From positions 62,001-126,000 of the forward strand of contig BAAIJX010000011.1 in the NCBI GenBank assembly GCA_054600435.1: a DNA stretch of 64,000 nt, written 5' to 3'. Positions 6,268-48,474 of this stretch are shown here, in pieces. The first letter of the stretch is position 1; every line of letters begins with the position of its first letter. The DNA is from Neophaeotheca triangularis (Eukaryota). The notes beneath the pieces were generated by a model. That model was given only the letters and a program-made list of their open reading frames with translations. It searched no databases and was not told the origin of the DNA. The translations under genes were made by a program, and so were the position numbers.

Positions 6268-6673
6268 AGAAGGAGTAAGGTTAGAAGCCTCGAGCAGAAG
6301 CAACAGCTTAGTTTTGTTAATCGCGGAAACACGCTAAGACAAATCTGGATAGTAGAACTTCTGTTCCCTATGCTATCGCAAGGCGCTTATCGGTGAATTA
6401 GAATAGTTCAACATTATTCACATGAAGGTTGCTTCAAACAACTATAAAGATATTTGAAGTGAAATACTTTCTAAGGTCAGAGAAAAACGGCAATCGAGTA
6501 AGTGAAGTCCGAACCCAGCAGTCTGGACAGGCCGTAGCGGCAGGGGACGGTCCGCTGGCCGCCCCCGCAAAAGCATGGGCCACCGAGTCTGTGAGCTTGA
6601 GCCTCAAGAAAAAAAAGATACGAAGACCTCGCCATCCGGTCCATTTTGCGCCTACCACAATGATACCGTAGTC

Positions 6674-9600
6674 ATGGCACCAATATCAAGACCCAGGTCT
6701 GTAAAGGCTTCCAAAGTGGTCAAACCCAAGACTAGCCGGAAAACGGGCACACCTTCTTCCCGACAACACCGCTTCCAACCCTTCTCGGAACGAATCGCAA
6801 AGTTGAAAATTGATGCTGTCAGAAGGCGAAGGGCAGATCAAGAAGAGCTATCGGAAGACTCAGCATCATACTTGGGACGCTCACTAGAAGAATGGCTGGA
6901 CCTGAATCTTTCCCGTACCTTTACGGAGTTCCAGAAGCATTTGTTGCCGCTGTGCGACAGCTTGCCAGAAGTGCTTCACAACGACGACAGAATCATGGAC
7001 TTGCTGGTGACATACATCGAAAAGGGCGATGCACTTGCTATGGAGCCGCTGCTCAGTCTGATGTCGCATTTCGCCCATGATCTGGACAGCAGGTTCGAGA
7101 AACACTTCCAGCGGGCTGTGGGCACGGTAGCTGCGGTTGCTGCGAAGCATTCGGACCCCGCTGTGATAGAATGGAGCTTTACATGTCTTGCGTTTTTGTT
7201 CAAATATCTGCAAAGACTCCTAACGCCCAACCTACGACCTTTATACGATCTGATGGCGCCGTACCTGGGGAAAGAAATACAGAAGCCGTTCATCATCCGG
7301 TTTACGGCTGAATCTCTAAGCTTTCTTGCCAGGAAGGCAGCGGTCAAGTACGAGAGAGATCCTGAGCCCTTGGACTTGATCATGAGGCATATGCTGGAGG
7401 ATGCAGCTCAACCCGGAACAAGTCACTCGGACAATCTCCACTGTCAGGGTGTCATGACCCTGCTCACCGAGGCCATCACTGGCGCGCAGCATGGATTGCA
7501 CACTGGGGGAAACGCCGTTGTCCGGAGTCTGATGAAGCACGTCATGATGTTTGGAGGAAGCGAAAAAGAGGATGCTGCGACGAACATCCTTACTGGTGTA
7601 CTAACCAGCACAATTCATCATACCACTCCCGAGACCTTCAGCCCCGTCTTAGACTCAGTAGTCTTCATTTCGAACTCGGAGAAAGGTGACGCAAGAGTTA
7701 AGATCGCAAGCCACGCTTTATTCACAATAGTATCTGTACGGAAGGCTTCTAGGGTAACAGACTGGAATTCTTTACTCGATGTGCTCACCAGTACGATCCG
7801 CTCTGGTATCGAGTCAGAGTCATGGTCTGATACTACCCGAGAAGCTGTTTTGGGTGCTTTCGCCATCTCAATGCAGTCCGCACCGGTCAATGCAATCCTT
7901 TCTCGGCAGGCTTTCTTCGGCGATTTGAGGAATGGTCAGTGGTCCTCACACTTTCTCCGCTTCTGCGACCTTTTCGCGCGTCTTGGTCGGGAACGGTTCG
8001 ACACGTTCGTCTTGCCTTGCTTCAAGAAGTTTGTTGTCGAGCAATTCTCGGGGAACGAGAAGCAGACTTGCTCTTTGCTCCCTCAATTGTTGAGTGGACG
8101 AGCATCAGCCCAGCCTCAATGCCCGGAGAAGTTGCAAAAATGGATACTGCATAGTATCAAACAAATCCATTTGAATGCTGAGCACGCCGACGCATTGTCA
8201 TCTGCAAATGAAGCGCTCAGTGCCAGCTCTTACTTGAAAATTAGCGACGAAACAACCGCTGAACTCCGAACTAGCCTTCTCGACATTCTCCGCAGGGCTC
8301 TTAATTCAGCTGATGATATCCCTACATCTCTATTGGGCTTCGCGACAGGGCCTGTGCTAGCCCGCTTGCTCGAGCTATCCGAAGACGATGCCCAATTATC
8401 GGCATCTCTCCCTAGTTTGTTCGCCGCGAGCCACCGTTGCATGGCCATGCCGTCTTTTTGGAGCAACCTCTTCCACTTGATCAAGCGATCTCCGGCTGTG
8501 AAAACCAACACTCCCGACATGGAAACGCTCAGGGAAGCATTGATAGACTCCCTCGCACTGCCCTCCCACAGCATACGTGAGATAGTCTTGGACATCTTGC
8601 AACTACTCTACCAACAAGAAGGCGCAAAAGAATCAGAAGCCTTGGCGTCGGCGATCAGAGTCGAATCTATGCCCGTCAGTCTGGACACCAGTCGCGAGAT
8701 TAACATGAACATTCGCAGGCTCGCAAGCGCCTATTCGGAAGTGGCCGAGAATGACTTGCTGTGCAGGGCGATCCCAATGTACTGCTTTGGATTGCTTCAT
8801 CTAAAGCTCTCTCAGGCCTGGGACGAAGCTATTAACACGATGGCAGAGATTTGCAAGCACTCAAAGGGCGAAGAGATAGTCATTGGGTTGACTCAAAAGT
8901 GGCTTGAAGGCGGCAGCGACTTCGATGTCGAGACAGTCGAGACAAATGCCATCGTCGATGTCAATACGGACGGGTTCAAAGTGTTCTCTGACTTTGCGTG
9001 CCCAAATAAGGCCAAAATCACTGCAATCGTTGAGCAAGTCTTCCAGCAAGAGAACAGCGGCTACCCTTCGCCAAAGCAACAACTCAAAGCCGCCTCGCAA
9101 CAAGTCTCTCTCATCTCTCCGAGAGCCAGAGAGCAAGCTCTACGCATCCTGACCAAGCTGCCCCAGTTGGCAGAAAAGCGATCCCGCCTCCTCGTGCCTG
9201 TCTTGCTTAGATGGGCAGGTAGTATCGATTCCTACGACGACGACGAAGCCGGCGCCCAACATCATCAACGCTGGTCTCGCAAAGACCAGAAGTCAATGCT
9301 CAATGTCTTTGCGCAATTTGTCAATCCCAGAGTGCTTTACAAGTCCGAAGAAGTGTATGCTGCTCTGCTCGGTCTTTGTGCAAACGGTGACGCTGAAATC
9401 CAACGTTCGGCGCTCAAGGCGCTTATGGCGTGGAAGATTCCTGCAGTCAATCGTTACGAAGAGCATCTCAACAACCTGTTGGACGATGCTCGGTTCCGAG
9501 AAGAAGTATCAGTCTTCTTGCAAGGCGAAAGCGGAGATGCAGCAATACGGGCTGAAGATCATGGTGAGCTCATGCCTGTGCTGCTCCGTCTACTGTACGG

Positions 9601-12600
9601 ACGAGCCGTGGCTGGGGGCAAGCATGGACAAAATACCCGACGCAAAGCAATCTTTGTTGCATTGGCACAATACGACCCAGCTGTCTTGAAAATGTTTGTC
9701 GATATCGCCCTTTCGTCCGCTAGCAAGAGCGACGTTCTGAGTGAATCTGGCGCGGTCTCTGACGCTGCTCTGCAAGAGCTCAACATGCCTTTGCGACAAC
9801 AATTGGGCATGCTGAACATGGTGTACGATATGCTGGATACTCTAGGGTCGGAACTCGAGCCTTCGGCCCGGCAGATATTCGATGCGGTGTTGCTTTGCTC
9901 TACGAAAGCTTCGCGCGCGCTCAATGTCACCGAGGATACCCAGGAGCTCAAGGATCAGTCTCTTCTCCGGTCCATCAGGCAACTCGGCTTGCAATGTCAG
10001 GTCCGGCTTTTTACCAAATTTGCAGGATCGATCCAGAATGTGCAAGCCAAGGCAGCAGTAGTTGAGCTGGTCACGCCGCGTTTGCCGAATTTCGCCTCCG
10101 AGAACGCGCAATCCGTCTCTGGGATGTTGCGACTCTTCGCAGCGTGGAGTTCCTCCACCGAGACTGTTTCGTACCTCGTCGATTTTGACGAGGGCGTTAT
10201 TGAGCAAATTGCGCGGCTTCTGCGAGAACCCAGCGCAAAAGACGAGGTCAGGCTCTTTGTGCTTCAGGAGATTATCAACAATCTACTGGCGGAGAGCATC
10301 GACCAAGCTGTCTTGGAGCGCTACATCCCAACCATTGTGCAGAGTCTTCGCGAGGTTCTACGTCAACAGCCTGCGAAAGACATCCTCGACGCAGGTGTCA
10401 CCACCACCGCTGAAATTGCTGCACGTATCACTGATCCCAAGGAAGCTGCTGCGGTGGTCGATGTGTGCAGCATGCTGCTTGCGAAGCCTAGCAAAGCAGT
10501 GTCTGCGAGAACCAAAGCCGGGTTGTTACGTACACTGCTTCCCCTTATCGACAGGACTGACATCGATGCTGAGTCCAGCCTCTACGACACGATTTCTGGC
10601 CTCTTTTCGCGCTTATTCGACCAAGACGCTCGCACCGCGCTTTCCGAGGTACTTGTTAAGCTTTGCCGTAACAACGCGGACTTGCTGGTCAGCGCTGATA
10701 TTTGCACTGGAATGAATGCTAGGGACAGCACACGCCTCGACGAGCCCGATCATCAGAAACGCGAGGCAGTCTTTAATGCCATTGCTACGGGTTGCGACGG
10801 CTTCACTCTGAAGCAGTGGAAGCCAATAGTACATAACTGCTTGTTCTATATCCGAGACTCTGAGGACCTTGTGAACCGCACGAGCGCTTCTTCCACGTTG
10901 GAACGCTTCATCGATAAGGCTGTTGTCTCCCCCCAGGTCGACGAATACCGCAGCTTCATGCAAGCCTCCTTGATGCCGAGCATTGAGCGTGGCATGTCAG
11001 AGTCCAGCGAGCTTGTACGGGCAGAGTACCTTCGCATCCTTGGTTGCGTCGTCGTCAAATTCCCCACCTGGTCGGCGGTCGAAGGTCTTGAACCCCTTAC
11101 TGCGAATAACGACGAGGAGGCTTCGTTCTTCCTCAATGCTCTGCACATCCAACACCACCGTCGTCTGCGTGCTGTGAGGCGCTTAGGCGAAGCTCGACTC
11201 AGCTCATACCATGTCACGAAATTATTCCTGCCATTCCTTGAACAGTTCATCTTCGACCGGGCGGAGGGAGATTCCGGTCTGACACTCGCCGACCTCAGCA
11301 TCCAAGCCATCGCATCTCTGGCCGGCTACATGTCTTGGTCGAGCTGGCGAGCAACCTTCAAGCGGTATGCCGGGTATCTTACGACCAAACTTGAGGTGCA
11401 AAAAGCTGTGCTCAGGCTGCTTGGTGCTCTGATTGATGCACTCCATCGTGCCGTCAAAGAGACTGATGAAGATACAGCTATGAATGAGGCTGGCAAGCCT
11501 GCGCTTGCGACCAGCTTACCCCAATCTGACATTCGCTGCGAAAAGACCACCGACGAATTGCTTCCACCACTCACCGACTTCCTGCACCTCAAGGACGAGT
11601 CCACCGTCGATCGTCGTGTACCTGTCGCTCTGACCGTGGTAAAGCTGCTTGATACCCTGCCCGTTTCCGAGTTTGCGCAAAGACTGCCCGGCGTGCTCAT
11701 GAATCTAAGTCAAGTACTGCGAAGCAAGAGCCAAGAAGCGCGCGACCAGACTCGCAAGACTATGTTTGCCATCTCCGCGGTCATCGGGCCTAGGTACTTT
11801 GGTTTCATGGTCAAAGAACTCCGCAGCGCGCTTCGTTTCGGGTATCAGCTGCATGTCATGTCTTTCACGGTGCATTCGCTGCTCGTTTCCGCCGGCGAGC
11901 GTCTCCAGCCGGGCGATCTCGATGAGTTCATCCCTGAGCTGACTTCAGTGATCATGGACGATATCTTCGGTGTCACGGGCCAAGAAAAGGAGGCCGAGGA
12001 GTACAAGAGTGGCATGAAGGAGGTCAAGAGCAGCAAGAGTTTTGACACAATGGAGATTCTGGCGCGGCTTACTAGTGTCCCGCACCTTGGGCAGTTAATT
12101 AAGCCTGTCCGGGCACTGCTGTCCGAGAAGCTCGATTCCAACAGTGTTAAGAAGATTGATGAGCTGCTGATAAGAGTTCGAAAGGGTGTGGATCAGAATC
12201 CTGCTGCCAACTCAAGGGAGATCTTAACCTTTTGCTACGAGATTGTGCGGTTGGTCGAGACCGAGCAAGCTGCCAAAATTGAGAACGATTCTGGTCGCAT
12301 CGGGGAATCAGGCCGTAAGGAGCGCCCAAGAGACGACTACAAAGTCAAGAAATATTTGATCCAAATGAAGTCGAACAAGAAGCTTGGCCTGACTTCTTCG
12401 ACCTCGCACCAATACAAGCTAGTCTCCTTCGGCCTCAGCCTAGTCCGTCGAGTTGTGAGGCGTCACGAAGATCTCGCCAGTCCCGCCAACATGGCCGGCT
12501 TCCTGCCCATAGCAGGTGACGCCCTAATCCAAGGCCACGAGGAAGTCCGCGACGCAGCAGTCAAGCTCCTCTCCACGATCATCAGAGTCCCCTTAGCAAC

Positions 12601-14362
12601 CCTTAACGACAACGCCCCCGTCTACCTCCGCGAAGCCGTCGCCATCATCAAAGACGCACCTACCGTTAACGACTCCGCTAAAGCAGCCCTCGACCTGGTC
12701 ACCGCCATTCTTCGCGAAAAGCGCGCAGTCAAAATCAAGGAAACTGATATTGCCGTTTTGCTCAAAACTCTCAAGCCCGACCTCGACGAGCCGGACCGCC
12801 AGGGTATCATCTACAAATTCCTGCGCGCCGTGCTCGGTCGCAAGATTGTCATCACGGAAGTCTACGAGATCATGGACGACGTGGCCAAGATGATGGTCAT
12901 GAACCCCGACAATGCTATCCGCGAGAGCGCTCGCAGTGCTTACGTGCAGTTCGTGCTCGAGTACCCACAGGGCAAGGATAGGTGGGCAAAGCAGACGGCG
13001 TTCTATGTCAAGAACTTGGACTATGCGCACAAGTCTGGGCGGCAGAGTGTTATGGAGTTGCTGCATCAGTTGCTGAATAAGTTGCCAGAGGAGGCGGTCC
13101 AACAGCTAGCGCCTACACTATTTGCCGCGCTGGTCTTGCGTTTGGCAAATGATCCCGAAGTCGCTTGTAAGGAGATGGCGGGGATACTGGTGGCGAAGCT
13201 TTTTGAGAGGGCTGATGAGGAGAGGTTGACATTCTTCGTGGATCGGATGCATAGTTGGCTGGGAAGCGAGGGGAATGTATTGCTTGTGCAGGCCGCGCTG
13301 CGGACTTGGACGATTGCGTTCCGCAGCGAGAGGGTCGGCAAGAAGGATGCTGTTGCTGTGCGTGCTAAGCTTACGGCGGTTGCTGAGGGTGCGGTCGAGA
13401 GCTGGAGCGCTGACGAGGGTGAGATGCTGAATCTGGCACTGCTCACCGTCTCAGCGATGCTGGAGACTACGCCCCAACTCGCGCTCGCAAAAGAAAGTGC
13501 AGACCTATGGTTCGCTGTGCAGCGCTGTCTGGCCTTTCCTCACGACAACGTCAAGCTCAACGCAGCCACCCTGCTGGGCCAGTACTTCCAAGGCATCGCC
13601 AGCACAAGCTCAAAGACCGAACAAGGTTTGGCGGGCCTACCGCTCCGCGGCTCCGGCGGCTTGCAGCTAACCGCAGACGACATGCGCCGACTATGCGGCG
13701 CCTCCCTACGCGTGCTCCGCTCAGGCGGGAGCGCAGAGGCCGCTACAATCCGCAACATTGCCTTCCTGGGTCGCTGCTTCGCGGCTAACAACATCGAATG
13801 GCCGCGCAAGTCCTCCGACGAGGAAGAACCCGAAGCCGAGGAAGACATGGCAGCCTCAGCCGAGACCGAAGCCACCAAAACCACACCTCTTACGGCTCTA
13901 GAAGTGCTCCTAACCCGCCTCTCGGCCACCATCCGCCGCGAAGCTCTCCCCCCTTCAGCACGCCTAGCCGCTCTAAACAGCCAAGCAGCCCTCCTCGCTC
14001 TCATTCCCTCCGTCGACTCCCTCGCCTCGGTCCTCCAACCGCTCCTTCGACCTCTGTACATCCTAACCGACGCCTCCATTCCACAACAACCTGGTGAAGG
14101 CTACCGCGACCTCAGCGACCGCGCCCGCGAACTCTTAGACGTCTTGCAAAAGAAGCTAGGATCCGAGGAGTATGTGAGGCAAATGGGGTTGGTGAGGAGG
14201 GGTGTCAAGGCTACGAGGGAGGAGCGCAGGGTTAAGAGGCGTGTGGAGGCTGTTGCTGAGCCGGAGAAATGGGCTGCGGAGAAGAGGAGAAAGCTGGGGG
14301 CGAAGAAGGCGAGGGATAAGGTGCACGGGCAGGAGATGAGGGGAAGGAGGAGGGGTTGGTGA
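6674..14362 (+). CDS. UTP20: U3 snoRNA-associated HEAT-repeat protein Utp20 (single exon, about 2560 aa)
   Basis: HRFQPFSERI N-terminus, LALPSHSIR, RFGYQLHVMSFTVH, DIFG...MKEVKSSKSFDT, YAHKSGRQSVMEL; probable start MAPISRP at 6674 (ORF opens at 6575). Confidence 0.93.
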   Translation: MAPISRPRSVKASKVVKPKTSRKTGTPSSRQHRFQPFSERIAKLKIDAVRRRRADQEELSEDSASYLGRSLEEWLDLNLSRTFTEFQKHLLPLCDSLPEVLHNDDRIMDLLVTYIEKGDALAMEPLLSLMSHFAHDLDSRFEKHFQRAVGTVAAVAAKHSDPAVIEWSFTCLAFLFKYLQRLLTPNLRPLYDLMAPYLGKEIQKPFIIRFTAESLSFLARKAAVKYERDPEPLDLIMRHMLEDAAQPGTSHSDNLHCQGVMTLLTEAITGAQHGLHTGGNAVVRSLMKHVMMFGGSEKEDAATNILTGVLTSTIHHTTPETFSPVLDSVVFISNSEKGDARVKIASHALFTIVSVRKASRVTDWNSLLDVLTSTIRSGIESESWSDTTREAVLGAFAISMQSAPVNAILSRQAFFGDLRNGQWSSHFLRFCDLFARLGRERFDTFVLPCFKKFVVEQFSGNEKQTCSLLPQLLSGRASAQPQCPEKLQKWILHSIKQIHLNAEHADALSSANEALSASSYLKISDETTAELRTSLLDILRRALNSADDIPTSLLGFATGPVLARLLELSEDDAQLSASLPSLFAASHRCMAMPSFWSNLFHLIKRSPAVKTNTPDMETLREALIDSLALPSHSIREIVLDILQLLYQQEGAKESEALASAIRVESMPVSLDTSREINMNIRRLASAYSEVAENDLLCRAIPMYCFGLLHLKLSQAWDEAINTMAEICKHSKGEEIVIGLTQKWLEGGSDFDVETVETNAIVDVNTDGFKVFSDFACPNKAKITAIVEQVFQQENSGYPSPKQQLKAASQQVSLISPRAREQALRILTKLPQLAEKRSRLLVPVLLRWAGSIDSYDDDEAGAQHHQRWSRKDQKSMLNVFAQFVNPRVLYKSEEVYAALLGLCANGDAEIQRSALKALMAWKIPAVNRYEEHLNNLLDDARFREEVSVFLQGESGDAAIRAEDHGELMPVLLRLLYGRAVAGGKHGQNTRRKAIFVALAQYDPAVLKMFVDIALSSASKSDVLSESGAVSDAALQELNMPLRQQLGMLNMVYDMLDTLGSELEPSARQIFDAVLLCSTKASRALNVTEDTQELKDQSLLRSIRQLGLQCQVRLFTKFAGSIQNVQAKAAVVELVTPRLPNFASENAQSVSGMLRLFAAWSSSTETVSYLVDFDEGVIEQIARLLREPSAKDEVRLFVLQEIINNLLAESIDQAVLERYIPTIVQSLREVLRQQPAKDILDAGVTTTAEIAARITDPKEAAAVVDVCSMLLAKPSKAVSARTKAGLLRTLLPLIDRTDIDAESSLYDTISGLFSRLFDQDARTALSEVLVKLCRNNADLLVSADICTGMNARDSTRLDEPDHQKREAVFNAIATGCDGFTLKQWKPIVHNCLFYIRDSEDLVNRTSASSTLERFIDKAVVSPQVDEYRSFMQASLMPSIERGMSESSELVRAEYLRILGCVVVKFPTWSAVEGLEPLTANNDEEASFFLNALHIQHHRRLRAVRRLGEARLSSYHVTKLFLPFLEQFIFDRAEGDSGLTLADLSIQAIASLAGYMSWSSWRATFKRYAGYLTTKLEVQKAVLRLLGALIDALHRAVKETDEDTAMNEAGKPALATSLPQSDIRCEKTTDELLPPLTDFLHLKDESTVDRRVPVALTVVKLLDTLPVSEFAQRLPGVLMNLSQVLRSKSQEARDQTRKTMFAISAVIGPRYFGFMVKELRSALRFGYQLHVMSFTVHSLLVSAGERLQPGDLDEFIPELTSVIMDDIFGVTGQEKEAEEYKSGMKEVKSSKSFDTMEILARLTSVPHLGQLIKPVRALLSEKLDSNSVKKIDELLIRVRKGVDQNPAANSREILTFCYEIVRLVETEQAAKIENDSGRIGESGRKERPRDDYKVKKYLIQMKSNKKLGLTSSTSHQYKLVSFGLSLVRRVVRRHEDLASPANMAGFLPIAGDALIQGHEEVRDAAVKLLSTIIRVPLATLNDNAPVYLREAVAIIKDAPTVNDSAKAALDLVTAILREKRAVKIKETDIAVLLKTLKPDLDEPDRQGIIYKFLRAVLGRKIVITEVYEIMDDVAKMMVMNPDNAIRESARSAYVQFVLEYPQGKDRWAKQTAFYVKNLDYAHKSGRQSVMELLHQLLNKLPEEAVQQLAPTLFAALVLRLANDPEVACKEMAGILVAKLFERADEERLTFFVDRMHSWLGSEGNVLLVQAALRTWTIAFRSERVGKKDAVAVRAKLTAVAEGAVESWSADEGEMLNLALLTVSAMLETTPQLALAKESADLWFAVQRCLAFPHDNVKLNAATLLGQYFQGIASTSSKTEQGLAGLPLRGSGGLQLTADDMRRLCGASLRVLRSGGSAEAATIRNIAFLGRCFAANNIEWPRKSSDEEEPEAEEDMAASAETEATKTTPLTALEVLLTRLSATIRREALPPSARLAALNSQAALLALIPSVDSLASVLQPLLRPLYILTDASIPQQPGEGYRDLSDRARELLDVLQKKLGSEEYVRQMGLVRRGVKATREERRVKRRVEAVAEPEKWAAEKRRKLGAKKARDKVHGQEMRGRRRGW

Positions 14363-29833: not shown

Positions 29834-30748
29834 ATTGTACAGCTGTAAAATACCATGAGGGAATTGCTAGTGGCTCCCATCAAGCTCGTCGGTAAGGAAG
29901 GTCTTGCAGTAAGTTATGTGGGTGATTTCGCAGCGTTGGCTTCTCTTTCCTGAGAAGGGGTGCTTTGTTTTTCATGATTGCTCTTCATATCTATCTGCGC
30001 TTGGGAAATGTCGGTATGCTACCAATGGCAGTGTCGCGAAGAAGGCTTTGGAGCTGGTAGCCAGTGAAAAGAGCTGCCTTTCTTGCAGCAACCCTGCCCC
30101 TGCTGCCTTTCGAGCGAGCGTGAAGAGCTGCTGTAGAAATGGTATTCCTTGGTATGTGTATCGTTCCTTGGTATGTACTCTTGCCTCGCACATCTGTTGC
30201 TACGGCTCTTTCCACCCGGACCCCTTCAGCCCCTTCCCACCAGGCTGTCGTCTGCCCATCCACCGCTGCCTTGCCTTCACGAACTCCCCTCTGGTCCATC
30301 AAGGTGACACTGCCCATCCACGCTCCTTCCTCACTGAAGCGCTTGGCGACGCGCTGCGGCGTTTGCCGAAGGAGTCATGGCAATTCGTTGAGGGCGTGAT
30401 TACCGCATTGGGCCTCCCTGCCTTCTCTAACCGGTCGCTGTACACGAATCTGCCCACGAATTCACAAAAACAACCCGCTAACGCCTTGCCGAGCCGAAAA
30501 CAGCGTCACATTCACGGTCCATTGCGCATGTTGCGTTTGTCACCGTTCTTGGCAGTGCATGTCTTAGTGGCCCCTGCTCAGCGAGAACAAAACCAGGCTC
30601 CCTCTCCTGCAATTCCTTCGACCTCTTCTCCTCCTACAACAACAACCACCACTCTCACCTACCATCTCCACCTTCTACCATACCATCCACCACACTCACC
30701 CACCCACACACATACCAACAACAAACGTTTCTCTCTCTCATCCTCAAC

Positions 30749-31487
30749 TTGAAGTTCTCTTCCGTCATCCTCGCCACCATGGCCGGCCTCACCTCCGTTA
30801 TGGCTGCTCCCACCTTCGTCAACGCCGACGCCATCAGCCATGGTATGGCCTTCACCTTCACTCAACTCACAACCAACAGCAAATCATACTAACCCACCCT
30901 CCAGAGCTGGTCGCTCGTCGTTGTGGCCCCAACTTCCGCTGGTGCAAGAAGGAGGAGGACTCCGCCATCACCGACGGTAAGCTTCCACTTCTTCAACATT
31001 ACCGACTTTTCACTTGCTAACTACTAACTTCTCAGACCTCGTCAAGCGCCGCTGCGGCCCAAACTTCCGCTGGTGCAAGAAGGACGCCGAGGCTGAGGCC
31101 GACATCGTCAAGGGTTAGGCGTCACTGCTTTCACTTTTCCAGGCCATCAGCATTGCTAACTTCTCTCAAAGACCTCGCCACTCGCGCCATCGACGAGGGT
31201 GATCTTGACGAGGAGGCTCACGTCATCGACCACGAGATCTTCGCTCGCCGTTGTGGCCCCAACTTCCGCTGGTGCAAGAAGGACACCGAGGATGAGGCCG
31301 ACTACGGTATGCAACTCAACATTACTTGACTCATTCTCACTCCAACTCTATACTCACACACTTTACAGAGCTCACCAAGCGTCGTTGCGGTCCCAACTTC
31401 CGCTGGTGCAAGAAGGACGCTGACGACGTCGAGGCTGAGGCCGACCTCACCAAGCGCCGCTGCGGCCCCAACTTCCGTTGGTGCTAG
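30749..31487 (+). CDS. Secreted Kex2-processed repeat precursor (KEP) with five CGPNFRWC cores, 5 exons, 165 aa
   Basis: Exons 30749-30842, 30905-30976, 31036-31113, 31172-31306, 31369-31487 (GT-AG introns of about 60 nt with CTAAC/CTCAC branch sites) give (L/M)KFSSVILATMAGLTSVMAAPTFVNADAISHELVARR-CGPNFRWC-KKEEDSAITDDLVKRR-CGPNFRWC-KKDAEAEADIVKDLATRAIDEGDLDEEAHVIDHEIFARR-CGPNFRWC-KKDTEDEADYELTKRR-CGPNFRWC-KKDADDVEAEADLTKRR-CGPNFRWC*. Confidence 0.92.
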
Positions 31488-32351: not shown

Positions 32352-33266
32352 ATGGCGAACCAAAGACCCGAGTTCAAACCCGACCCAGCAGACGAAGAGA
32401 AGACCTCGGAACAGGAGAATACGCCGGTATCCCTAGAATTCGAGGTCAATCGAGAGCTGATAGATAGCAGGGCCAAGGTTCCTACTTCTTCCGCGCCTCG
32501 TTATATCGTGTCGAGGGGCTCCGCTGACTTGAATCAGGACCGACGTATACTCGAACTGGAGCGGGAATTGGAAAAAAAGGTGATTGATTACGATTACAGG
32601 TTATAGGTAGGTTACTGACGTTGCAACAAACTCTAGGACACGGAACTTTCGAACCTGCGAACGTCGCAAGCACGCCAAGAGGTCGACAAATTGACGCAGC
32701 AAGTCAACGATCTCAAGCAATCCGAGCGTGAACTCAAGGCCGGCAAAGTGACTCTGCTAGAAAGTCTGGACGGCCTTGCGGCAGGAAACTGCTCGAGGCG
32801 CGACGAGACCCTCATCAATTTGACTTCTAGTTCGACGAGAGCCGAAGAGAAGCTGAGCAAAGTGACGACTGATGAAGTTCCAAGACTGAAGGGAGATATT
32901 GAGCGGTTGTCGAATGTAGAGGAGGAGATGAACAATGAGAGAAGGAGAGCAACCAGTCTCCAGTCCTCTGTTGAACGGTTACAAAGGTCAGTCGATGCCA
33001 TTGGTGACGGAGTGGAGGCAATGAACACAAGCATGGTCCACGTGTTCAAGTCGAAGAAGACGGCTGGGATGGAGACGATCAACAAGATGACCATGCCAGG
33101 CTTGAGTGAGGTTTTAGGGCAAGAATGGGCGTCGCAGAAGCTTTCACGTTGCTTGGACGCTAGGGTCGGTCTACTCACGATCAATTGGCAACACAGATCA
33201 AGAATTGCTAGAACCACGACGTGTCGAAGGCATAGTCTCTTCGATCGACCTTCTAAACCACGTTAA
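32352..33266 (+). CDS. Hypothetical coiled-coil protein, 2 exons (3' end uncertain)
   Basis: Intron 32580-32636 (GTGATT...CTGAC...TAG) joins ORF 32352 in frame to ORF 32691; E/K/L heptad-like composition. Confidence 0.5.
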
Positions 33267-33821: not shown

Positions 33822-34526
33822 CTATTTTCCTTTCAGGGTAAAGAGATCAGCTTTTATGTCCTCCGCCGTCTCGGCGGCGCACTCCTCGTCTGCCCTGGCC
33901 TTCGCATCGATGCGCTCTTCGTAGGCCTCGTTCATGGCATCGATACGCTCCCGGTAAGACTTGGCTGCAACCTCGTCGTAGTCCTCGCAGATTTGCTGGC
34001 TTCTGTTAGATGTCGTTCGGAACGGACCTGAGTGATGTCTCCAAAGACTTTTCGTCTTACGGTGTAACTTGTCGATGGCTCCCTTGGCCTCCTCCTGGCC
34101 TCGATCAATTTCTCGTGGCAAGGGCAAGTCTGCGACGCTATATAGCTTTTCGTATTCTGTTTCCACGCGGTTGATCATGCGATCCATCTGTTCGTGTCCC
34201 GCTTTGACCGTGATCACGGCATCCTTGTACCCCTTGACGAGCTCAAGATACTTGGGCGGCTCAGTGTCGACACGGCGGCTAAGAAAGTTGCGGCAGTCAG
34301 TGAGAAACCGATCAGCATCGAATCTATCGACAATTACCAACCGCTTGGCAGGCTTGGAGCTCGAAATTGTTTCACTTTGCTCTCGATCTCCCTCGATCGT
34401 TTGGAAATCTGGATTCCGGGGCCGGGGGCGCCGCGGAGGTCCGGAGGAGGATCTGGGGGGAGGATTCCTGGCCCCAGGAGAGCCTGTCGTGGTGGCATAG
34501 TTGCATGGCGTCTTTGCTACGTTGAA
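33822..34526 (-). CDS. Hypothetical helical protein or gene remnant (no upstream ATG found)
   Basis: Frame open from 34526 to TAG 33822; charged helical composition with an internal repeat (YRERIDAMNE/YEERIDAKAR). Confidence 0.35.
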   Translation of the reverse strand, partial: FNVAKTPCNYATTTGSPGARNPPPRSSSGPPRRPRPRNPDFQTIEGDREQSETISSSKPAKRLVIVDRFDADRFLTDCRNFLSRRVDTEPPKYLELVKGYKDAVITVKAGHEQMDRMINRVETEYEKLYSVADLPLPREIDRGQEEAKGAIDKLHRKTKSLWRHHSGPFRTTSNRSQQICEDYDEVAAKSYRERIDAMNEAYEERIDAKARADEECAAETAEDIKADLFTLKGK

Positions 34527-35708
34527 TTATATCTTAAAGGCGGGCCAAACGCACGTGACGGGATCTAAGCTCCGGCCTGTCCCAGGCAAGGCCGTTGTGG
34601 TGTGGCAGTTGGGAGTGTCTGGAGGGTGGGGGCAGGGGCGGGGATTGGGGTTGTGAGAGGGGGAAGAACAGTGATCCCGAAGTCAGTAGAAAAATGTCCA
34701 GAGGCATGCCAACGGTACAGACGAGCATACGTAAGCACCAGTAGTGCCAAGACATACCACGTGAGTTGCCGTGACAAGTGAAGTCAGCAAGGAAAGGCGA
34801 TAGAAAAGAACGACAAGAAGGTAACCACGCCCTAAATTGTAGCATTCCACCCGCTCTCCAGGCTCGTTCAGGCAATGGTGCATTCCGTGAGCAGCATACC
34901 GGCGTTCCCATGACATGACCCATCACCGATGGAAAGTCGCCGCTTTGAGTTCGTGGTGGAGAGATACGGTGGGTGGAATTATGTACATTGAATGCTGCAA
35001 ACAGAGCCAGTCGTGGCCCATCCGTTGTAGATGTCGTCTCGAAATCAAGCCCCAAACGCACTCTTCAAGAAGCTTCGGCCTCCTCGCAGGGCTTGCCGAT
35101 AGTCGAAAAGCGGTCAGCGAACGTTCAACCCCCCTCGTTGCTTTCAATGGCTTACATGTACAGTTGGGTGTTCCCGTCGGCCGAGATCTGGTCGCGGCTT
35201 TTGGGGTTTGTCGCTTTAGTGGGGTTTTAGCTGTAATCGCTGGTGGCGGGGCCAAAGGAGAGGAAGACAGGGATTGAAGGCTCCAGGAGGAGGTTGTGGT
35301 GGTGGGTCGTTCAGAGGCCATGTTGGGGCCAAGAAAGGGACTTTTTGTCTTAGCTGGCGGCCACGCAACTCGAGATTGCAAGGGTCTCTGCAGCAGTGTC
35401 AAGAAGCGGTGCGGCGGCATGCCTGACGCACGAGGTGCGTGAATAAGACTCAGAGCCGGAAAGTATTTGATTTGATGCCAGTAAGCGCCTCCGACGTATA
35501 CGTGTCGACAATGACTAGAATCATAGCTAGCGAAAATAAAGAAATTCACCTTTCTGTAAGACCTACCAATTGGTTGGTTGCAAGCTTTCAGATCCCAAAG
35601 ATACGAGGTCATTTATTTCCTTACTCGTTAATTCATCACTACCCCTGCACCTGCACCAGCACCAGTTCCAACAGTAACGCCAGTTACTCACATCTCAAAA
35701 CGTACCCC

Positions 35709-38028
35709 TCAAAGCTTACTCCCAACCTCACAACAAGCACCACTAGCATCGACCCTCCCCTCGACACTCCCCTGATGATGCGCCTCACTAACCAAAGTGC
35801 TCTTGTTAAACTCCTGCGTGCTAGGCGGCACATCAATGGCCGGATTACGGTCGAAGAAGTTGACAGGCTTGAGAGCAACCTTGAGAATCTCGCAAGGCAT
35901 GACTGGGAAATCTTCGATACGGGGGACCTGAGCGCGGACATGTTAGTGGAAAGAGTGGGGAAATGGCGCGGGCTTCTGGCGGGCTTACGTGGTTGATACC
36001 GAATTGGACGAAAACGACTAGGTCGTCGTCGACGATGTTGTCTTTGCGGTTGGCCCAGCTGCGGACACCGGTGCCACCGCGGGATTGATTGGTGTATTTG
36101 CCTCCGGCGAAGAGTTCGTTGTCGCGGTACTTGACGGCGTAGATGTTGTGGTCGGAGAACTCGGCGCGCTTGTGGTTGAAGCTCTCGGTGTCGGAGAGGA
36201 TCTTCTGGAACGGAGGTGCCATGATCTTGTAAGCTACGGGCTTGCCGTTGACGGGGTTGCGGAGCGCGGCGTTCTGGATCTTAAAAGTGCGGTTTGCGTC
36301 GAAGTTGAGGTCGTAGCCGCCGGACTTGTCGACGACAGTTTCGGAGACTGTGTACCCGGTGCCGTGGGGATTGAAGTCGCTGCGAGGCATGGCATGGGCT
36401 TCGTCGTAGACTAAGCGGTTCTGGTGACCTTCGATCATTGGGTCTACTCGGAGGGAGAAGATGTGTTGGTGGTGCGTCGCCAGGACTCCTGGATGGACGA
36501 CTGTACCCCATGGTACATCGAGACCCTCGTCGATGGGCTGAGTGGAGAGGATACCAGTTGCTCGGACCTCGTACATCACCTCACCGGCTTGGTTGAATTG
36601 GAAGGCCAGGATGTACTCGTAGTTTGCAACGGCTAGTACAAAGTCAGCAAAGCAAGTCTCAACACGTGTGAATGTGAAGATGCTACTCACTAATGATGCT
36701 CTGGAGCACCAACTCCCTTGACCGGACAACGGCGGCCCGCCCAGTACGGAAGTTGGTGTGCTTCCAGCCAATGCCTGCGTCCTGCTCGTGAATGCAAACA
36801 ACGTTGGGCATCTCCATCGGCTCACCGCGAGGGTCGGAGAGAACGGAAGAGAGGTAGTGAATCGAGCCCAAGCAGTCACAGCCCAACTTAAGGTCGTTGG
36901 CCATACCACCAGCTCCAGCATCACCAAGATCGAAAGCGGACTTCTTGTGAAAGGGGTGACGAGGATCAGCGTAGGGGATGTTCTGTATCAAAGTCAGCCA
37001 TGTCGTCGCCACGCCCGGCTCATGTCTCTCACCATGTCAGAAAGCGAAAGTCTGTAAAAGAGGCTCCTGCCTTCGTAGCGAACATCGTACAAGACCATAC
37101 CCTCCCTCTGGTTGAAGCCAACTCTGAATGACCACTTCTGCCATTCTACGACACGCGACTCTCCTTCTTGAGCGACCGAGAAGCTAGTGCCCTCCGGTTG
37201 AACCACATTCAGGGGCTTCAAGTCTGTCCTCAAATTCTGCGCTTCGGGAATGTACTCATTTGCAGGCTTTGGTGCCCAAGGTTGCGGTTCTTTGACAGTG
37301 TTGTCTTTACCAGTCGGCAGGTAATCGATTCGAATAATCTGCATGGTCTCGGTGTCCATGACTGGGGAGATTGTAAGGGGCATGGCGTAGTGGTTTGCGT
37401 CGGGCTCGTCGGGCTTCTGAGGGTCCGTGGCGTACATGAAGCCTTGCAACAACCGCTTGTCGTCGTCAACGCCGTCGCTGCCCCAAATCCACGCATCGAC
37501 AACTACCCGCGTGCCTTCAGGGAGTTGTAGCTTGGCGATATTTGCCTGCACTTCTTCGTCCTCCAACATCAACCGCTCAGCAGCCACAATCTCTTCTCCA
37601 TCCAGAGGGGCATGATCGTTAGGTCCTAGGCGGAAGTTCGACTCGACAGACTGCGTGCTGAGATTGACAATGGCTTCGTGGAATTTGTCCTAAGTAAAGG
37701 TCAGAACTCGTCAAGCCTCGATTCGTACCCAATTGAGCGACCGTCAACTCACAGTGTTCTTCAAATAGTACGTGACCATTGCCCTCCGGTCAATCTTCGG
37801 GAACTGGCCGCCATTGTGTTCCGCCTCAAGAAACCGGACAGCTTCTGCCTTTGCGGGCTCTTCCAGAGTGACAGCCTTGAACAAAAACTCGGTCTTCTCC
37901 GGCCATTGCGTCTTGACGAGCGAGGAAGCTTGCTTGATCTCTTCGGAAGTCAAGGGGGCGAGGGGGTGGGAAGTGGCTTGCTTGGTCTTGCGCATAGGCA
38001 AGGATGTGGAGACGTTTTGAGTGGCCAT
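35709..38028 (-). CDS. Peroxisomal copper amine oxidase, 5 exons
   Basis: Exons 38028-37753, 37689-37033, 36982-36691, 36632-35989, 35927-35709; HPLAPLT, LGCDCLG, TVANYEY (TPQ site), HQH copper ligands, HVPRIEDFPVMP, C-terminal SKL (PTS1). Confidence 0.94.
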
Positions 38029-38866
38029 GATTGCTTGGGAGGAATGCGATGCTTGGTCAGTCGGAGGTAGAGAGAGCTCGATTGGTTAGATCAGGGGGAC
38101 GGGGTTTTAAATATGTGTTCGAGGAGCGAAGAGAGGGAGAGGGCATTTGAATGGGTAGCGAGAGGAGTAGATATAGGTAGATGTACTTATCAAGTGATAA
38201 GCAGAGTGGAGCACGAGGGGAAAGGGAAAGGGTCTGTCTGGATGGAATAGATTCCGCGCAGGTATTCTTTCCCCACGGGCCAGGGCACGGTAGTTGGTCT
38301 TTGCCGGATTGCTGTAGTTTTGTGCTTTATCAGTTGCCCAATCAGGCAAGTCCAACCGTCGAGCTGGGGGGGGGGGCGGACACACGTGGGGACAGAAAGA
38401 TAAGCCACCTCAGGCAACCAGGCCAGGCTAGAGGCAGCATATTGAGCGTGCAAGGAACCTCAAGCGCCAAAAGGTAATATTCGTACAAGTACACATCTCA
38501 AACATACACACTCCACTACCACCTGCCTGCCTGCCTACCATGTCCCTCCCCAAAACCACAGAATCCCCATAAAGGCCCCATTAGCGCAGCAAACAATCCC
38601 AACGCGCCGTTTCCCCCGGGTATCACAAAAGTCCAAACCCCCCCTTCTCCCTACTATTGGAAGGGAATCAAAGAGAGAAAGCGAAAAAGCAAAACAAGCG
38701 AGCAAGCCAAACCCCCCGTCACGACAACCGCCCCCCCTTCCCCCCCACTTCTACGCCGCACATACGCCCTTTCTCGTCGCAAAAAGCCGGCGCAAAAGTC
38801 TCCAGTCCAGGTTCCACTGGAGCCAGACCAAGACACGGGACCTCCTCTCCTCTCCTCTCCTCTCCA

Positions 38867-46644: not shown

Positions 46645-48474
46645 CTAATCAAAAGTAATTTTGGTCGCCTTCTTGCTGGTATCCACATCCTTGTAGAAAG
46701 CGCCATAAGCATCATGCCCCTTCTTCTTGACAGTAGTGCCAAACTTCATCAAATCTTCGGGAACAGGCTGACCAGCTCCCTTCAAAACGTTGATCAAGGC
46801 CCCAGCAAGTCCTTTTTCATTGTCTGTGAACATGGTAATAGCCAAACCGTCCTGCCCGGCTCGACCAGTGCGGCCGATACGATGGACGTAATCCTCCACG
46901 GTGAGCGGGAAAGTGACGTTGATGACAACCTTCACAGCCGGGATGTCGAGACCTCTGGCAGCCACATCAGTGGCCACGAGACAGGGCACTTGGCCCTTCT
47001 TGAAAGCATCCAAACTCTCAGTACGTTTCTGCTGGCTGAGGTCACCGTGGATGCCGCCCACGTTGAAACCACGACGACGAATAAATTCCTCGATGCGTGT
47101 GGCTTCCTTCTTGTAGAGGCAGAAGACGAGGATGCGGTCCGACTTGTTCTTGCCGGATTGGTATTGCCTGAGCAGGTCAATTAGGCGATTCTGTTTGGCT
47201 TGCGGGTCGATGACTTCGACTTCTTGCTTGATACGGGCGTTGGCGCGCAACTCTCCCGTGGGATTATCGCCAATGGTCACCTTGACAGGCTTGTTCATAA
47301 AAGTGCTTGCAAGCTCGCGGACTGATGGTGGCCAAGTGGCTGTGAACATGAGGGTTTGACGGCCAGTGCTGGGAGTGCCGGAGATGATCTTCCGGATTTC
47401 TTCCTCGAAACCCTTGTCAAGCATACGGTCTGCTTCGTCAAGCACAAGGTATTGTACTTTGGAAAGATCGATGGAGCCCTCTTGGATGAAGTCGTTGAGA
47501 CGACCTGGAGTTGCAACGACGATGTGCGTACCCTTTAGTGTCTCGCGCTGGGCATCCTTGTTTACTCCGCCATAGACGACGGTAACCTTCAAACCAGCCG
47601 GCTTCGTGAGCTTTTCAAGCTCTGCATGGATCTGACACGCCAGTTCTCGCGTTGGGCTGACTATGCAAGCTTTGATTCCCTTTGCGTCTTTCTTGTCGAG
47701 GGAGCTGATCTGCCTCACGCAAGGCAGGCCAAAGGCCAGCGTTTTTCCGGATCCCGTCTCTGCAACGCCAATAACATCCTGACCAGCAAAGAGGTATGGC
47801 CAAGCAGCAGCCTGGATGGGAGTCGGGGTCGTGAACGCCTTGAAAGGCTCGCGTAAGCTCTCGTCAATGGCTGGGAGGTGTTTGAAGGCGGTGATGGGTC
47901 GGAAAGTGTTGGCAGTAGGGTTCTCGACGGTGATGAATTTCTCGGCGATAAAGGCGTCGACTTCGGATTGCGGCAGAGCAGAGAGGGTGGGGTTTTCAGC
48001 GTAGCCAGACACCGCGACTGCTGCGGTGGTGCCGCTGCTGACCCCGTGACCGTTGGTCTTTGCCGCCTCTTCGACGACAGCTTCTCCAGACTTCTTTTCT
48101 GCTTTGGCCGCTTTGCGAGCAGCCTTGTCGGCAAGCTTCAAAGCCTTCTTCTCAGCTTCGTCCGCAGCAGCATCATTACCCGTTCCGTCTGCGACATTCT
48201 CTGCAGCCTCTTGAGCAGCCTCTGCCTTGACCTTTTCCTTTTTGGCGCGCTTTGCGGCTCTTCGCTCTTCTTTGCTCAGGCCTCCAAGCTCAGGGTCGTC
48301 CTCCTTTTGCTTCTGCTTCAAAGTCTTGCTCTTCGGCTCGCCATTCGAGACCGCTTCAGCCGAGTCGGTCTGCGCAGCTAGACGCTTCTTTTCCTTCTTC
48401 GCCTTCTTTGCGGCGCGCTCAGCGTCACGCGACTCGACGTCAGCAACGACTTCTTCGCGCTCCCTCTTGGCCAT
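46645..48474 (-). CDS. DBP3: DEAD-box rRNA-processing helicase Dbp3
   Basis: Lys-rich N-terminus, [56 protein letters not shown]...KITFD. Confidence 0.93.

Follow-up and report, generated by a model that had tools for sequence, protein, structure and literature searches.

A probable unannotated, intron-split fungal gene for a Kex2-processed repeat protein carrying five copies of a cysteine-bracketed octapeptide

Between positions 30749 and 31487 of the window (the whole 64-kb stretch of DNA analysed here), the octapeptide CGPNFRWC is encoded five times without alteration on the plus strand (frames 0, 2, 0, 2, and 2), which raises the question of whether these copies belong to a single gene and, if so, what kind of product that gene would release. 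The reading that we favour, with a probability of roughly 60%, is that the locus is an intron-split, unannotated filamentous-ascomycete gene whose product, 155 residues long (165 if translation were to begin at an upstream TTG), is a Kex2-processed repeat protein (KEP). The five copies, referred to here as cores, are placed as follows.

30922-30945, plus strand: core 1, in exon 2
31053-31076, plus strand: core 2, in exon 3
31252-31275, plus strand: core 3, in exon 4
31386-31409, plus strand: core 4, in exon 5
31461-31484, plus strand: core 5, in exon 5, with the TAG stop codon (31485-31487) directly after it

A scan of the 64-kb window with a degenerate DNA pattern for the octapeptide returned these five sites and none besides, and the same pattern found no match in any of 100 shuffled sequences. 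The initial annotation had described five identical cores at these positions, each preceded by RR and followed by KK and an acidic spacer except for the last, which ends at the stop codon, and had stated that the copies differ solely at third codon positions; all of these claims held when exact coordinates and codons were compared. RR precedes every core (as ARR twice and KRR three times), KK and an acidic spacer follow cores 1-4, and core 5 lacks KK and abuts the TAG. The KK pair is itself codon-invariant (AAG AAG in 4 of 4 copies). Within the 30-base block made up of RR and the core, six sites vary among the copies, all six of them at third positions and all six synonymous, although just 19 of the 90 single-base substitutions that the block allows would leave the peptide unchanged. 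Introns 1, 2, and 4 share a mutual identity of only 38-56% (22/58, 34/61, and 26/58), and Tandem Repeats Finder reported no DNA repeat at the locus. Given the synonymous-only variation of the cores, the divergence of the introns, and the lack of a reported DNA repeat, the duplications appear to be old, and it is the peptide rather than the DNA that has been kept constant.

Enumeration of donor and acceptor sites left one sensible intron per gap and yielded four GT..AG introns, all in phase 1, that bring the cores into one reading frame. The resulting gene model is as follows.

30779..30842, plus strand: exon 1, which begins at the first ATG and encodes 16 N-terminal residues of marginal signal-like character before the pro-region sets in
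30843..30904, plus strand: intron 1, 62 nt, phase 1, donor GTATGG, branch point CTAAC, acceptor CAG
30905..30976, plus strand: exon 2, with ELVARR, core 1, KK, and an acidic spacer
30977..31035, plus strand: intron 2, 59 nt, phase 1, donor GTAAGC, branch point CTAAC (two copies), acceptor CAG
31036..31113, plus strand: exon 3, with DLVKRR, core 2, KK, and DAEAEADIVK
31114..31171, plus strand: intron 3, 58 nt, phase 1, donor GTTAGG, branch point CTAAC, acceptor AAG
31172..31306, plus strand: exon 4, with a long acidic spacer ending in IFARR, core 3, KK, and DTEDEADY
31307..31368, plus strand: intron 4, 62 nt, phase 1, donor GTATGC, branch point CTCAC, acceptor CAG
31369..31487, plus strand: exon 5, with ELTKRR, core 4, KK, an acidic spacer, LTKRR, core 5, and TAG

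In all four introns the branch point lies 10-20 bases ahead of the acceptor, and none of the intron lengths is a multiple of 3, so that retention of any intron would break the frame. When spliced from 30779, the coding sequence has 468 bases and encodes 155 residues with 10 cysteines (165 residues if the TTG is used), and the exon translations matched no Pfam family. Shuffling was also applied to the three gaps between cores in which an intron is required, with success defined as a stop-free, frame-restoring intron that has a donor, a branch point, and an acceptor; such introns arose in 34 of 3000 shuffles of the intron 2 gap, 67 of 3000 of the intron 3 gap, and 38 of 3000 of the intron 4 gap, and the probability that all three coincide by chance is roughly 1 in 100,000 at most. 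The GC content at codon positions 1, 2, and 3 is 0.62, 0.46, and 0.84, respectively (0.73, 0.33, and 0.85 when leader and spacer codons are taken alone), while that of the introns is 0.43 and the GC3 values of two neighbouring genes are 0.62 and 0.58. We predict that the gene is probably well expressed. A (D/E)-(L/I)-x-x-R-R run leads into the core that follows each intron, and the intron interrupts the Asp or Glu codon that opens this run, directly so in introns 1, 2, and 4. Since the introns are all in phase 1 and occupy the same place in this lead-in run, we propose that the gene grew by tandem duplication of an intron-plus-exon module, with introns and spacers drifting afterwards; the last duplication, from core 4 to core 5, is without an intron.

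Records of RNA and protein bear on both the splicing and the annotation status of this gene. One RNA-seq run shared 0.07 of sampled words with the locus and yielded one contig of 151 bases that matches 31310-31460 exactly and comprises nearly all of intron 4 in unspliced form, contiguous with exon 5. Pre-mRNA, carried-over genomic DNA, and retention of intron 4 would each explain this contig equally well, and it shows that the library contains nucleic acid from the source organism or a near-identical one. The proposal that four short introns split the gene is upheld as far as canonical signals and the restored frame are concerned, but the only RNA contig recovered runs unspliced through intron 4. 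On the protein side, no protein of 22-2000 residues in a 5.8-billion-cluster collection scored against the last exon (40 residues), where two candidates shared words with it and neither scored, and a further search for near matches yielded no candidate. Two other proteins of the same contig, a DEAD-box helicase and Inp1, do have an NCBI record (2 of 5 window translations that were looked up exactly), and given that these contig neighbours are recorded and none matches the last exon, the gene is unannotated there, as had been claimed at the outset. The cluster of the helicase at 90% identity has no other members, which indicates that close relatives are absent from the protein collection. Taxa listed by the Atlas for the EMP70 neighbour place the source organism among the ascomycetes.

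It might be argued that there is no gene at all and that the cores are a chance or structural repeat in non-coding DNA, and the lack of annotation, of a homologue in close relatives, and of spliced RNA would all agree with this. Such an explanation has a very low probability in our estimate, as it would have to account for synonymous-only variation, the periodicity of GC across codon positions, four canonical introns that restore the frame, and a stop codon right after core 5. Together these features provide strong in-silico evidence for a real coding gene.

The start of the gene was the part of the model that required correction. The initial annotation had it begin at 30749, where the codon is TTG rather than ATG, and the first usable ATG is at 30779, in the strong context GCCACCATGG. 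No in-frame ATG lies upstream of 30749, although the frame is open back to 30482; the ATGs found upstream, at 30528 and 30559, are both out of frame, and the next one is that at 30779. An upstream exon that would supply an ATG was considered and rejected, as inspection by eye revealed no acceptable donor and acceptor pair joining 30528 or 30559 to the frame. Two features precede the ATG.

30600..30748, plus strand: pyrimidine-rich (CT/CA) tract with no ATG, likely a promoter-proximal region or 5'UTR
30749..30778, plus strand: upstream in-frame extension of 10 codons that begins with TTG and encodes a hydrophobic stretch, which would form a classical signal peptide if translated; it represents 5'UTR or else what is left of a signal peptide that was once longer

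Fungal start sites are often preceded by CT-rich tracts. From the ATG at 30779, the N-terminus consists of 15 uncharged residues, with V-N-A (small residues at -3 and -1) before D17. Its best 8-residue hydropathy is 1.80, compared to 2.11 with the TTG extension, and there is no positive charge ahead of the hydrophobic stretch, where the extension would add a Lys. A signal peptide that starts at 30779 would thus be short and weakly hydrophobic, and we regard it as marginal. The signal peptide that had been claimed for this precursor is accordingly retained in the form of a signal-like N-terminus from 30779, but its classical form needs the TTG at 30749; the start codon had been misread, since the signal peptide as first read would require a non-AUG start or an ancestral ATG. 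Either translation begins at 30779, with the coding appearance of the sequence before it due to CT-rich composition alone, or an ancestral ATG became TTG, and we keep both readings.

The second of these readings leads to the possibility that the gene is decaying or silenced, such that the ATG at 30749 was lost to TTG, the signal peptide was truncated, and the protein is no longer made or secreted in this strain. The ten codons from 30749 read as an ideal fungal signal-peptide start except for the first base, G or C ends 8 of the 9 codons after the TTG, the sole contig from the RNA library is unspliced, and, in the available text of PMC8661429, start-codon loss is a route by which pheromone genes decay. 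We nevertheless consider decay improbable, given that everything downstream is intact (five perfect cores, four sets of splice sites, no frameshift, and no premature stop), that an in-frame ATG in strong context lies 30 bases on and still provides an uncharged, signal-like N-terminus, and that a CT-rich upstream tract would encode hydrophobic or Ser-rich residues by composition alone.

Returning to an intact KEP gene, the layout of the precursor suggests how its product might be made. Once the four phase-1 introns had been removed, as splicing signals, frame logic, and composition suggest, the N-terminus would take the protein into the ER, subject to the marginal nature of the signal peptide, and the two cysteines of each core would pair there. 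A Golgi kexin would then cut after RR, and either a further cut after KK would free the core from its spacer or a Kex1-type carboxypeptidase would trim KK away, as suggested by the arrangement of the sites and by core 5 ending directly at the stop codon. Kex2 sites are KR, RR, and less often KK, of which KK is poorer than KR or RR, as far as the available text of PMC6339444 describes them, and Kex1 removes basic residues that remain at the C-terminus (available text of PMC6339444 and PMC9769878). Given that KK is invariant in 4 of 4 copies and absent after core 5, where the stop codon follows, Cys is favoured as the mature C-terminus. Five copies of an 8-residue peptide would be secreted, or of a 9-residue form that keeps one Arg, should K-R-R be cut behind its K-R. 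The peptide is likely to be closed by a disulfide into a ring in which the cysteines enclose six residues, and the acidic spacers would be discarded. The calculated oxidised [M+H]+ values are 980.3866 for the octapeptide, 1136.4877 for the Arg-extended form, and 1236.5765 for a form that retains KK. The DAEAEA runs of the precursor had been interpreted as Ste13-type sites, and this is borne out to the extent that DAEAEA occurs once, at the head of spacer 2 directly after KK, with a VEAEA variant in spacer 4 that also follows KK, but these runs are not placed to trim the core. Neither of them abuts any core, so Ste13-type trimming would act on discarded spacer and not on the peptide. The product probably acts extracellularly, either in signalling or towards other organisms; the disulfide closure and the role as signal, toxin, or effector that the initial annotation had suggested are both putative. 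In the available parts of PMC9769878 and PMC10589705, deleting single KEP genes produced neither an axenic nor a sexual phenotype, and the authors of PMC9769878 propose, in the portion available, that KEPs have roles in interactions with other organisms.

The proposal that the locus encodes a Kex2/Kex1-type repeat precursor is well supported in silico by identical cores bracketed by dibasic sites, acidic spacers, the lack of any other domain, a strong codon-position bias, and synonymous-only drift. Several identical short peptides lie between KR, RR, or KK sites, which is the arrangement that defines KEPs, and the small size of the precursor, its dibasic sites, its acidic spacers, and a predicted, if marginal, N-terminal signal recall the KEPs described by Le Marquer et al. 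2019 (PMC6339444) and in PMC7329392. According to the available text of the latter survey (Umemura 2020), 7878 KEPs occur in 1345 of 1461 strains, with 2560 of them stand-alone and about 5 per ascomycete. Precursors of this build are common in fungi, and the present gene is very probably a fresh example of an established class. Four features are peculiar to it compared to other KEPs: its flanks are asymmetric, with RR before and KK after the core; every repeat module except the last has its own phase-1 intron; the core is bracketed by cysteines; and the gene is absent from annotation, hence invisible to protein-based KEP surveys.

To place this gene in its genomic context, we scanned 256 ORFs of the window against Pfam, comprising 18 long ORFs, the complete set of 146 ORFs (55 aa or longer) overlapping 24.0-38.5 kb, and, from the rest of the window, 92 of the 242 ORFs of 80 aa or more, chosen mainly for length. 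The neighbours include a deaminase, the ribosomal proteins L44 and L19e, CwfJ, UTP20, a VTC/SPX protein, Inp1, a hydrolase, an MFS sugar transporter, the 24-kDa subunit of complex I, a coiled-coil ORF, a copper amine oxidase, an IQGAP-type RasGAP, EMP70, a DEAD-box helicase, a Zn2Cys6 factor, RPA1, a calpain, a TRP channel, and a phosphoesterase. The surroundings are therefore predicted to be housekeeping genes. One neighbour deserves separate mention.

35712-38085, minus strand: copper amine oxidase gene, assigned by Pfam, 4-6 kb downstream of the precursor gene

An enzyme of the copper amine oxidase family has a part in victorin maturation. The presence of this gene downstream would be consistent with the precursor belonging instead to a heavily modified RiPP of the dikaritin, victorin, or epichloecyclin kind, in which tailoring enzymes act on the core. 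Dikaritin precursors have a KEP layout, as given in the available text of PMC7329392 and PMC9769878, and those of ustiloxin (UstA) and its relatives resemble the present one in having repeated cores separated by Kex2 sites behind a signal peptide, which is marginal here. We consider this explanation very unlikely, however, as the DUF3328/UstYa partner that defines dikaritin-type precursors, along with tyrosinase and methyltransferase genes, was not found among the 256 ORFs scanned in the window, and the remaining neighbours are housekeeping genes. Given that no DUF3328/UstYa or other tailoring gene occurs in the scanned ORFs, the locus would represent a stand-alone KEP and not a RiPP cluster, and its product is probably unmodified or minimally modified. 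The lack of a DUF3328 neighbour is shared with most KEPs: in the available text of PMC7329392, such a neighbour accompanies 22% of KEPs, leaving 78% without, and DUF3328 genes, where present, are on average 3 genes away.

The main rival to a KEP of this general kind is a special case of the class, namely that the gene is the alpha-type mating pheromone precursor of the source fungus and that its octapeptide is recognised by the Ste2-type receptor on cells of the opposite mating type. Alpha-type precursors consist of a signal peptide and repeats between KEX and STE13 sites, and in the available text of PMC13037118 the class is defined by mature peptides of 9-15 residues, KEX and/or STE13 flanks, and a central glycine or beta-turn. 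In the present gene, Gly-Pro-Asn lies near the start of the core, KEX-type sites are present, and the cysteine spacing is matched. Alpha-type pheromones of Pezizomycotina share its precursor logic, its identical repeats, a core with tryptophan, glycine, and proline, and the C-x6-C spacing; many of their mature peptides have two conserved cysteines (PMC6339444, in its available text), and both of the examples printed there, RFCHLPGQGCSK and QSWGGCGGRGTPCW, enclose six residues between their cysteines, the number also seen in the present core. Mature alpha peptides also differ widely from genus to genus, and a single family has 38 distinct ones (available text of PMC13037118), start-codon loss is documented for Colletotrichum alpha-pheromone genes in the accessible part of PMC8661429, in parallel to the TTG seen here, and pheromone KEPs are without DUF3328 neighbours in what is available of PMC7329392.

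Several observations nonetheless make a pheromone unlikely, if still a serious contender. The core, at 8-9 residues, is shorter than the 9-12 or 11 residues reported, it lacks both the G-Q turn and the PCW end of the printed examples, and no Ste13 dipeptides adjoin it. Motifs of the G-Q and P-C-W type, together with two cysteines, are attributed to Sordariomycetes, Leotiomycetes, and some Dothideomycetes in the available text of PMC6339444. In Colletotrichum and Verticillium, a DUF1640 gene lies downstream of the alpha-pheromone locus (PMC8661429, as far as available), and this neighbour is absent from the ORFs scanned here, a synteny that is known for one order only; the downstream coiled-coil ORF likewise showed no DUF1640 among the best 25 of its 38 Pfam matches. 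Lastly, with an average of about 5 KEPs per ascomycete in the accessible survey text, the prior probability that any one of them is the pheromone is about 1 in 5.

With a KEP of unspecified role as the preferred reading, we asked what resembles its core. No protein with the exact CGPNFRWC core was found in the collections searched, and a search of the ESM Atlas with the last exon gave no usable match. A HMMER search with the last exon against 1.84 billion representatives returned two matches (P0001 and P0002), the second of which is a hormone-receptor-domain (HRM) repeat protein that we rejected as unrelated. The first, TDL15092.1, comes from the basidiomycete Rickenella mellea, where it is recorded as a hypothetical protein of partial length; its E-values are 8.1e-08 in phmmer and 5e-09 in BLASTP, and its score rests on one 8-residue motif counted three times, such that homology and convergence are inseparable. 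As in the present precursor, a signal-like N-terminus is followed by repeats between basic residues, in that case three copies of CGPGGRWC, which shares 6 of 8 residues with CGPNFRWC and has the same ring size. The two proteins differ in that the spacers of TDL15092.1 are rich in X-Pro and X-Ala dipeptides and unrelated to the present ones, its cores are flanked by G...TR rather than by RR...KK, and it is of basidiomycete origin. It is an uncharacterised KEP-like protein with no Pfam family, it matched only itself among 896 candidates, and no intermediates between it and the present gene were found in the protein collections searched. Its accession does not appear in Table S2 of Umemura (PMC7329392).

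A scan of metagenome DNA with the degenerate core pattern gave eight loci with one match each, which we read as chance occurrences, as they have no RR/KK flanks and no second copy, and 6 of the 8 have stops within the 30 codons shown on either side. Neither CGPNFRWC nor the Rickenella core CGPGGRWC was found in the literature searched, and literature matches to 5- or 6-letter substrings of the core were irrelevant by title and the start of the abstract. The suggestion that the core matches no described fungal peptide therefore needs to be qualified: no characterised match was found, but a look-alike exists in TDL15092.1. It is conceivable, though quite unlikely, that C-G-P-x-x-R-W-C is a recurring fungal ligand scaffold of both ascomycetes and basidiomycetes, perhaps an unrecognised branch of the pheromone-like peptides that have two cysteines and a six-residue ring, with a conserved receptor or target, and represented here, possibly, by a highly diverged mating pheromone. 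As a lead only, the Phe-Arg-Trp triplet that stands beside the closing cysteine of the present core also occurs in cyclic vertebrate melanocortin agonists.

The probable KEP gene described here has implications for how such peptides are sought. Short, intron-rich genes for peptide precursors escape standard fungal annotation, and surveys that start from predicted proteomes, such as the KEP catalogues, may under-count them. Thousands of KEPs are known, many of which are orphans, and the points of note in this one are the intron in each repeat, its escape from annotation, the core closed by cysteines, and a possible link to two-cysteine pheromones. The layout of one intron per repeat records the growth of a precursor by module duplication, and the basidiomycete look-alike raises the possibility of a shared target. 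The candidate peptide is concrete and cheap to synthesise, its exact masses are predicted, and it may represent a ligand for an orphan fungal receptor or a factor in interactions with other organisms.

The features flanking the predicted intron-split precursor gene, which encodes five CGPNFRWC cores on the forward strand, are as follows.

6506-14359, forward strand: UTP20 (small-subunit processome component), one continuous ORF
30528-30752, forward strand: upstream ORF of 74 codons, from an ATG at 30528 to a TGA at 30750-30752
32637-33263, forward strand: coiled-coil ORF of 209 aa, a short way downstream of the precursor gene
33825-35612, reverse strand: three successive ORFs of 234, 176, and 229 aa, with the coiled-coil ORF on one side and the amine oxidase on the other
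35712-38085, reverse strand: multi-exon copper amine oxidase gene
46648-48474, reverse strand: DEAD-box helicase

The DEAD-box helicase is the sole member of its own 90%-identity cluster, which indicates that the protein collection searched contains no close relative of this organism, and every comparative test is therefore limited. The record for the look-alike of the precursor's core, the Rickenella mellea hypothetical protein TDL15092.1 with CGPGGRWC repeats, is flagged as partial. Its first ~33 residues resemble translated 5'UTR and precede a Met that opens a clear signal peptide, and repeat 4 is degenerate; the source gene model is probably wrong at both ends.

The upstream ORF lies in a different frame from that of the precursor gene, and its TGA overlaps the TTG at 30749 that the initial annotation gave as the precursor's start. 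Its own start resembles a signal peptide and its tail is rich in Ser/Thr/Pro. It could be a uORF, a small gene of its own, or a chance product of CT-rich DNA.

At 2618 codons without an intron, the UTP20 ORF is unusually long. Pfam matches to the coiled-coil ORF were weak and of a generic coiled-coil kind, with none at the curated cut-off, and the Pfam scan assigned no family to the three successive ORFs, which may be pieces of a single intron-split gene. The N2, N3, and catalytic domains of the copper amine oxidase are spread over at least five ORF pieces; this gene, which sits downstream of the precursor gene at a distance of 4-6 kb, probably has a housekeeping or catabolic role unrelated to it.
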